From Escherichia coli (lineage in GTDB: Bacteria > Pseudomonadota > Gammaproteobacteria > Enterobacterales > Enterobacteriaceae), in the NCBI RefSeq assembly GCF_003334815.1, contig NZ_QOWO01000014.1: a stretch of 64,000 nucleotides of DNA, one strand, 5' to 3'. This document shows, one piece after another, positions 63,742 to 63,828 of this stretch. Position 1 is the first letter of the stretch; the number at the start of each line of letters is the position of its first letter. A program made the translations under genes and the position numbers. The notes under the pieces were generated by a model, which did no database searches, was not told the origin of the DNA, and was given only the letters and a program-made list of their open reading frames with translations.

Positions 63742-63828
63742 TTAATCTTTAATTGTGTCTTTAAGTAAACTATAAGTTAATACTATAATTTAATCTTTAA
63801 TTGTGTCTTTAATTAAACTATAAGTTAA
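63742..63828 (+). repeat. Two 39-bp direct repeats (1 mismatch) separated by 9 bp
   Basis: TTAATCTTTAATTGTGTCTTTAAGTAAACTATAAGTTAA (63742-63780) and TTAATCTTTAATTGTGTCTTTAATTAAACTATAAGTTAA (63790-63828). Confidence 0.9.

Follow-up and report, generated by a model that had tools for sequence, protein, structure and literature searches.

The window analysed here, a 64,000-nucleotide stretch of Escherichia coli DNA, ends in the remains of an integrative element. Up to position 63613 it is 99.9% identical to E. coli ETT2/ygeQ DNA. Genes of the ETT2 type III secretion system (sctR/S/T, sctQ and others) and ygeQ occupy positions 55530–63379, to the left of the att fragment, in the layout of ordinary E. 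coli, and several of these genes are annotated as frameshifted in relatives. The att fragment, which constitutes the attR core and lies at 63493–63515 on the minus strand, reproduces 23 nt of the glyU 3′ end without a mismatch (TTCGATTCCCTTCGCCCGCTCCA); ARAGORN found no complete tRNA at this fragment. Further on lie a deletion junction at 63614–63636, an imperfect hairpin at 63692–63720 and a conserved AT-rich block of 119 nt with 80% A+T, spanning 63722–63840 on the minus strand. Positions 63843–64000 are the end of an IS10/ISVsa5 copy, within which the window stops and which lies between the AT-rich block and the upstream module and promoters described below. From 63843 to the end, the window is 100% identical to IS10/ISVsa5 copies in more than 1000 E. 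coli records.

The block contains two 39-nt direct repeats, at 63742–63780 and 63790–63828 (both assigned to the minus strand), which differ at a single position (G/T) and whose starts are 48 nt apart. On the gene (minus) strand the first copy reads TTAACTTATAGTTTACTTAAAGACACAATTAAAGATTAA, the 39-nt core of a 48-nt unit. An earlier, sequence-only reading had drawn attention to this pair, its one-base difference and its 48-bp periodicity, and the coordinates and shuffling experiments bear it out: the pattern occurs twice in the 64-kb window and was matched in none of 100 dinucleotide-preserving shuffles, and on this result a chance origin of the repeats was rejected. Tandem Repeats Finder describes the region as a period-11 array of seven imperfect copies at 63759–63839. 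The true repeat unit is 48 nt, composed of sub-units of 11–13 nt of the type CTTAAAG or CTTATAG. The 'partial echo' of the repeats that the same reading saw running up to the IS10 end, CTTTAAGTTAAG, is also present, at 63829–63842 on the minus strand, next to the IS end at about 63843; its gene-strand sequence, GGCTTAACTTAAAG, is the first sub-unit of the block. In most block-bearing relatives this sub-unit comes after ACAGGGGC or a close variant of it; in the window, IS10 separates it from this upstream partner. The nine bases preceding the IS10 end, 63834–63842 (AGTTAAGCC), agree at five of the six specified positions with NGCTNAGCN, the consensus of the IS10 insertion hot-spot.

Of 5426 complete E. 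coli genomes, a set that does not include the window's own, 73 have a match of about 94% identity to the DNA between 63636 and 63839. The order on the gene strand in these genomes is glyU, a gene for a 542-aa tyrosine integrase, non-coding DNA with the repeats, a KilA-N-like ORF, a 157-aa ORF, the 23-nt glyU fragment and ygeQ, and the intact element in strain LR-71-1 (locus L003) is 4273 bp long. The island family as a whole spans 4.3–6.6 kb, encodes a tyrosine integrase and is bounded by the 23-nt glyU repeat. Relatives of the integrase occur in 385 of the 5426 E. coli genomes and also in Klebsiella, Serratia, Yersinia, Citrobacter, Pectobacterium, Proteus and other genera. The repeats had thus been placed correctly in non-coding DNA of an integrative element at glyU, and a search for the same repeat in related islands finds it in the 73 E. 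coli genomes, with equivalent blocks in other genera.

Comparison with intact relatives reveals that about 1.7 kb has been lost at 63614–63636. The ORFs found at the deleted site in those relatives, one KilA-N-like of 187 aa and the other of 157 aa, are both missing from the window. The window copy of the island is certainly decayed, with its promoter side severed by IS10 and its cargo deleted, and because IS10 parts the block from anything upstream and the cargo has gone, the element is probably inert. The loss also explains a feature that had seemed significant. The repeats do lie close to the tRNA-fragment scar, at the distance of about 230 bp first noted (the 23-nt glyU copy is about 225 nt away), and hence close to the end of the element in the window, but this does not extend to intact relatives, the nearness being due to the loss of the 1.7 kb.

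This bears on the proposal that the repeats are arm-type binding sites for integrase or excisionase. They are direct repeats in an integrative element, the decayed copy lies 225 nt from an att core, and like the arm sites of lambda-like attP regions they are directly repeated in the non-coding DNA of a mobile element. They differ from such sites in position. The intact block occupies 2259–2390 of the 4273-bp L003 element, which places it 2.26 kb from attL and about 1.9 kb from attR, and across intact elements it lies 1.9–2.3 kb from both cores. The composite motifs TTAAAGA, AATTAAAGA and AAAGAC[AG]C occur in the central block of the intact element and, on the gene strand, nowhere else in it, the arms included; lone CTTAAAG heptamers are found within about 60 nt of each att core. 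Moreover, the positions expected of arm sites are held on both sides by conserved TGTAACC pairs. In the window, a TGTAACC(A) pair with a 12-nt separation is found at 63569–63591 on the minus strand, and a matching pair adjoins attL in intact elements. In L003, where all are in a single orientation, the repeats of the attL-side pair lie 75 and 87 nt inward of their core, and those of the attR-side pair 63 and 75 nt inward of theirs. Such pairs, 63–88 nt inside each core, are kept between E. coli-type and Klebsiella-type elements and are present in both arms of seven of the eight elements examined; in L005 the attR-side pair lies deeper, behind extra DNA. These pairs are, to judge from their sequence and placement, the likelier candidates for arm-type integrase sites, and we find it scarcely credible that the 48-nt repeats serve in this way.

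Iteron-like sites had been suggested as well. The block does look origin-associated, but it forms no strict iteron array, no initiator was matched, and its likeness is to the transcription-activated origins of the T7 group. The islands share with theta plasmids the presence of direct repeats in non-coding DNA and differ from them in that no initiator gene was recognised. The proteins encoded by the elements are the integrase, sometimes PD-T7-4, KilA-N or Rha/Ant-like proteins, and the products of small ORFs; no match to a Rep family was obtained among the island proteins scanned, the Pfam scan covering three L003 proteins.

The window block, locally the most AT-rich stretch at 22% G+C, corresponds to blocks of 108–215 nt in related islands, among which A+T content ranges from 74 to 83%. 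In 30 loci from genomes and metagenomes that have the conserved upstream module in common, the block begins right at ACAGGGGC or a close variant, with the starting consensus T(T)AA(A)CTTAAAG..ACTTAAAGAC, and its far boundary in most of these loci is a GGTGATGAT...ATCACC hairpin. This is the imperfect hairpin at 63692–63720 in the window (minus strand), directly past the block, and its predicted stability is modest, −10.3 kcal/mol with a z-score of about −1.6 to −1.7. The Klebsiella-type block, of 108–109 nt, has a single AAAGACC unit, and the unit of the E. coli T7-promoter lineage is the 48-nt AAAGAC[AC][AC]AATTAAAGATTAAC..., which is present twice in the window and L033, three times in L001, L003, L031 and L078, and four times in L002, L004 and L072. 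As the unit number varies from one to four among relatives, the 48-nt pair is, on this comparison of sequences, a recent and copy-number-variable duplication inside an element that is conserved across genera. It had been foreseen that the repeats might prove to be a simple recent tandem duplication with no conservation; the first part of this holds for the two-copy structure, but the duplicated unit sits in a conserved element. Unit number would shift by slippage or unequal recombination. One sub-family, found in O26:H11 strains, Shigella and Citrobacter, has the first sub-unit only (AAACTCAAAG) and is without the AT-rich block, so that the long block is not essential to the island family.

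Two other features of this region deserve mention. Lying between the promoters and the AT-rich block, a module of about 180 nt (L003 12524–12690, minus strand, and equivalents) is conserved across genera, and its hairpin CATCC...GGATG shows some compensatory changes in a consensus RNA fold computed from a poor alignment. The module could be an RNA or part of an origin; an Rfam scan of the non-coding region of the intact element at permissive thresholds returned a single, chance-level match. In addition, short tandem repeats of TATGG(C/T)C(C/A)T, variable in number, flank the unit of promoters and AT-rich block on both sides (L002 8600–8700; L003 12290–12330; L033 4020–4170; window 63636–63650) and may be protein-binding sites.

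Protein binding might equally be proposed for the 48-nt repeats, whether by a KilA-N, Rha or Ant-type cargo protein of the island or by a host nucleoid protein such as H-NS, which would silence the island until infection. The 11–13-nt phasing of the sub-units is as expected for bent DNA or an array of sites, and there are cargo proteins with DNA-binding folds. The start of the block is conserved, however, while the cargo varies between KilA-N-like, Rha/Ant and unrelated ORFs, and we consider this explanation very unlikely.

No T7-group promoter was found in the 64-kb window. In the E. coli relatives, the 23-nt T7 promoter consensus, TAATACGACTCACTATAGGGAGA, is present one to three times, with no more than one mismatch, in the interval between the integrase gene and the repeats; the perfect 23/23 promoters lie upstream of the block on the strand of the integrase gene. 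In both E. coli M217 and Klebsiella pneumoniae ATCC 13883, a perfect T7 promoter is flanked by K11 promoters (AATTAGGGCACACTATAGGGAGA), and an additional K11-like promoter lies downstream. Loci from other genera have promoters of the N12-CACTATAGGGAGA type with different specificity regions, in every case on the integrase strand and 250–1300 nt past the integrase gene. Intact copies have one to three consensus T7 or K11 promoters on the same strand, aimed at the block, which starts about 230–250 nt downstream of the nearest promoter. By sequence match, T7-group promoters are located at 12765–12787 and 12883–12905 of L003 (minus strand) and at 9387–9503 and 9942–9964 of L006, and promoter arrays are also present in L010, L031 and many other loci. 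The best match of the island promoters is phiOR, the likeness including the transcribed start and amounting to 85% over 40 nt. Klebsiella-type elements have an extra promoter beyond the hairpin.

In wild E. coli, Klebsiella and other Enterobacterales, promoters of the T7 group, those of T7 and K11 among them, stand in arrays next to a glyU integrase and are perfect or nearly so; in some cases two promoter specificities share one element. A cloning-vector artefact is ruled out, since the promoters occur in many natural isolates and genera and their specificities differ. We found no description of promoter-bearing islands of this kind in the full-text literature searched, a body from which most subscription journals are absent. 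About 220 nt 5′ of the KilA-N-like ORF lies CAATACGACTTACTAATAGGAGA, a degenerate T7-like promoter that comes after tandem AATCAATACG repeats (L003 at about 12160–12210, minus strand; L001 7871–7893). On a 23.8-kb IMG/VR contig, L053, a T3-like promoter, AATTAACACCCACTAAAGGGAGA, is followed about 90 nt on by an AT-rich block resembling the Klebsiella type (at about 690–870); the contig could come from a phage or carry a further variant of the island.

Local alignments of island blocks with the whole T7 and K11 genomes were made on both strands, with dinucleotide shuffles providing z-scores. For the Klebsiella-type and E. coli T7-promoter blocks (L083, L069, L081, L006 and L003), the top T7 match is 5925–6014, the AT-rich DNA between phi1.1B (5923) and gene 1.1 (6007), which is the primary origin of the phage. 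In the alignment of L083 with T7 5930–6005, 58 of 76 columns are identical. The top matches in K11 are 40534–40601, right after phiOR, or 5839–5860, right after phi1.05, the promoter that comes first past the RNA polymerase gene. The z-scores range from 5.7 to 11.5 in four of the five block–genome pairings tested, among them L006 (11.5) and L003 (5.7) against T7 and the window block at the K11 phiOR site (9.7); the exception is the window block against T7, with a z-score of only 3.5. L005 and L011 represent another lineage, which matches the left end of T7: the best T7 match of L005 is 415–492, right after phiOL, and the best plus-strand match of L011 is 267–302, within the left-end CCTAAAG array, a slightly higher minus-strand match falling at a site without obvious meaning. 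Apart from L011 in T7, all top matches are in the promoter sense, and minus-strand scores are at background. BLAST searches of the non-coding region against 50,697 phage records recovered the promoter only, the low-complexity filter probably having masked the AT-rich block.

The surroundings of phage promoters offer further points of likeness. Seven of the eight ACTTAAAG motifs in K11 lie no more than 50 nt downstream of annotated phage promoters, and T7-like viral contigs of about 40 kb have a tandem motif, AACTTAAAG-N-ACTTAAAGAC, directly past promoters. The GGTGAT...ATCACC stem of the hairpin adjoining the block is also the stem of hairpins after phiOR in T7 and K11. A canonical primase site, (G/T)(G/T)GTC, is present on the template strand of 11 of 15 distinct blocks, as GTGTC, TGGTC or GGGTC, and one lineage has GACCT or none; the T7 origin carries GGGTC at the position aligned with the island primase-type site. 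As one lineage is without the site and GGGTC in T7's own origin is reported to be unused for priming (PMC12839067), the primase pattern is only suggestive as evidence of an origin.

Replication of T7 begins at phi1.1A/B, for which phiOR and phi6.5 can stand in; every T7 origin requires a T7 promoter, and phiOR by itself drives plasmid replication (PMC8373140). Like the primary T7 origin, phi1.1A/B with about 61 nt of AT-rich DNA, and the secondary origins phiOR, phiOL and phi6.5, the island has one or more promoters facing a stretch of about 80% A+T, and as with phi1.1A/B there can be two or three promoters in tandem. The island relatives thus have the upstream promoter, at least about 60 nt of AT-rich DNA and the sequence relatedness of a T7 origin, and their origin activity is putative. 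There are differences too. The island sequence is chromosomal and borne by an integrase element, whereas that of T7 is in the phage genome; AT-rich DNA adjoins the T7 promoter at once, but the islands have about 180 nt of conserved and partly structured sequence in between; the island block is expanded by 48-nt tandem units; and a single island element can bear both T7 and K11 specificities.

Since AT-rich promoter-proximal DNA in T7 doubles as mRNA leader, similarity alone is no proof of origin function, and the block might be a transcribed leader or RNA element that affects processing, stability or translation of the cargo RNA, as T7 late leaders do, and plays no part in replication. The promoters transcribe the block in the sense direction with the cargo ORFs downstream, and similar CTTTAAG/CTTAAAG motifs are found in T7 and K11 leaders after phi6.5, phi13 and phi10. 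Against this, the best genome-wide matches are origin regions and not the strongest late-gene leaders, the nearest ORF is about 450 nt on, and no ribosome-binding site or ORF follows the block. Moreover, the separate promoter past the hairpin in Klebsiella-type elements renders the cargo independent of the block as a leader. We therefore think a leader function unlikely, while allowing it some real chance of being correct.

A further phage signal, one that speaks for a way of life dependent on phages, is present within the integrase gene. In L006, L010, L011 and L012, the exact 19-nt concatemer junction of T7/K11, CTCTGTGTCCCTATCTGTT, consisting of the right end of the terminal repeat and the ATCTGTT class II pause signal, is found on the promoter strand at a point about 500 nt from the start of the integrase gene (L006 7644–7662; L010 6489–6507; L011 6519–6537; L012 2621–2639). 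Its core, TCCCTATCTGT, is held at synonymous sites in most family members; the codon table gives TCC CTA TCT GT(T/A) in 16 of 21 integrase genes and single-base variants in three more. The core sits in an otherwise variable linker of the integrase and includes a CTA leucine codon, which is rare in E. coli. The lineage of the window retains 15 of the 19 junction positions. A sliding-window scan of synonymous sites in the integrase left the junction region unranked, its residues being too variable for the filter, and no copy of the left end of the terminal repeat (TCTCACAG) was found in the elements.

The presence of a junction copy within the same elements might suggest that the AT-rich block, too, is a packaging signal, mimicking the CCTAAAG arrays that flank the T7 terminal repeat and aiding terminase or concatemer processing as opposed to the start of replication. 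T7 has 11 copies of CCTAAAG in its first 340 nt and five in its last 270 nt, and the G/C palindrome and TTAACTTAAAG that precede the block resemble T7 27–47 (CCCCCATAGGGGGTACCTAAAG). Most blocks, however, align with origin regions and not with the T7 end repeats, L011 excepted (its K11 match is at phi1.05). The ends of K11 are without such arrays, yet islands with K11 promoters have the block, and the junction copy is some 1.6 kb away, in the integrase gene. We judge a packaging role for the block distinctly improbable.

The phage-type character of the promoters, origin-like DNA and junction might alternatively be explained if the island were the decayed remnant of an integrated T7-like temperate phage, the block being a functionless left-over origin with a chance duplication, and the window copy is certainly decayed. 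Against this, one compact architecture of 4.3–6.6 kb, with an intact integrase and conserved att arms, recurs at about 50 loci in many genera. Scans of nine island proteins gave no match to T7-like polymerase, replisome or structural families, and the loci inspected contain no annotated gene of these classes. A search of 50,697 phage records gave no DNA match to the non-coding region beyond its promoters, and promoter specificities are mixed within single elements. We regard this explanation as highly improbable.

The block is related to phage origin DNA, lies downstream of the promoters in their transcriptional sense and is conserved among the islands. The best explanation of these likenesses appears to be that its T7-group counterparts are phi1.1A/B, phiOR and phiOL in T7 and phi1.05 and phiOR in K11. 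Overall, we lean towards the conclusion, with somewhat better than even confidence, that the block is homologous to, or mimics, the readily melting AT-rich DNA downstream of T7-group origin promoters and resides in an island that exploits infecting T7-like phages. From this we infer firing of the origin and amplification and packaging of the island. On infection by a T7-like phage, the phage RNA polymerase would transcribe from the island promoters into the block; the transcript and the opened AT-rich DNA would allow the phage replisome to start copying the island, as at a T7 origin, and the island and its cargo would thereby be amplified. The concatemer-junction copy in the integrase gene could make packaging of the island possible as well.

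Some variants of the island carry an anti-T7 gene. In L006 a DUF4145 gene that overlaps the integrase stop codon (8746–9378) matches PD-T7-4 with E = 8e-99; PD-T7-4 is missing from the lineage of the window. Genes annotated as DUF4145 are also present at L005 5762–6391 and L007 8736–9395. The element family to which the glyU island belongs also provides the genomic context of PD-T7-4 described by Vassallo et al. (2022; PMC9519451). The paper reports that the gene often overlaps an integrase gene, and in its main text we found no mention of T7 promoters (PMC9519451).

The islands have att sites and an integrase of their own and lack annotated virion genes, as expected of a phage satellite. Like PICI, P4-like elements, PLE and the minimalist PICMI of Vibrionaceae (PMC10803314), they are small, integrative and without annotated structural genes, they appear to be wired to a specific helper, and some variants carry the anti-phage protein PD-T7-4. 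They differ from these satellites in that the libraries searched gave no match between a predicted island protein and families for replication, regulation or capsid remodelling, in that the link to the helper is apparently made almost entirely of cis-acting copies of phage signals, and in that the presumed helpers are virulent T7-group phages, of which the papers searched describe no satellite. The cis set in question would comprise promoter arrays for one or several phage RNA polymerases, the origin-type AT-rich block and the junction copy in the integrase frame.

A promoter, an origin and a concatemer junction together reportedly render plasmids packageable by T7 (Chung and Hinkle, J Mol Biol 1990). 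Intact islands have the same minimal cis set as these laboratory T7 transducing plasmids, including the exact 19-nt CTCTGTGTCCCT/ATCTGTT; they differ from the plasmids in being natural, in having their own integrase and att site and in placing the junction inside the integrase frame, and their packaging is putative. The excised attP junction was not found as an exact 37-mer in metagenome or viral contigs, which is a weak negative. Matches of the module to viral contigs were rejected as evidence of packaging: these are IMG/VR entries with isolate-like identifiers in which the island lies beside its integrase, with no phage genome. T7 is a textbook virulent phage, and we know of no natural satellite of it; none was found in the full-text literature searched.

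It is a realistic possibility, to which we give a little less than even weight, that the glyU islands of Enterobacterales are minimalist satellites of virulent T7-group phages and form a family not described before; the phage would transcribe, replicate and package them, and their cargo, for example PD-T7-4, would defend the host. Satellites or defence islands and phage-type origins are known kinds of element, and the present variant is new within the literature searched. For genome annotation, the consequence is that a perfect T7 promoter can be a natural part of a wild E. coli or Klebsiella chromosome. If the satellite reading is true, an obligately lytic phage with its own RNA polymerase would be parasitised by DNA mimicry alone, the genomic setting of the anti-T7 gene PD-T7-4 would be explained, and the islands would be a natural counterpart of the engineered T7 transducing plasmids. 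The mixed T7/K11 promoter arrays would then record which phage RNA polymerases a lineage has met.
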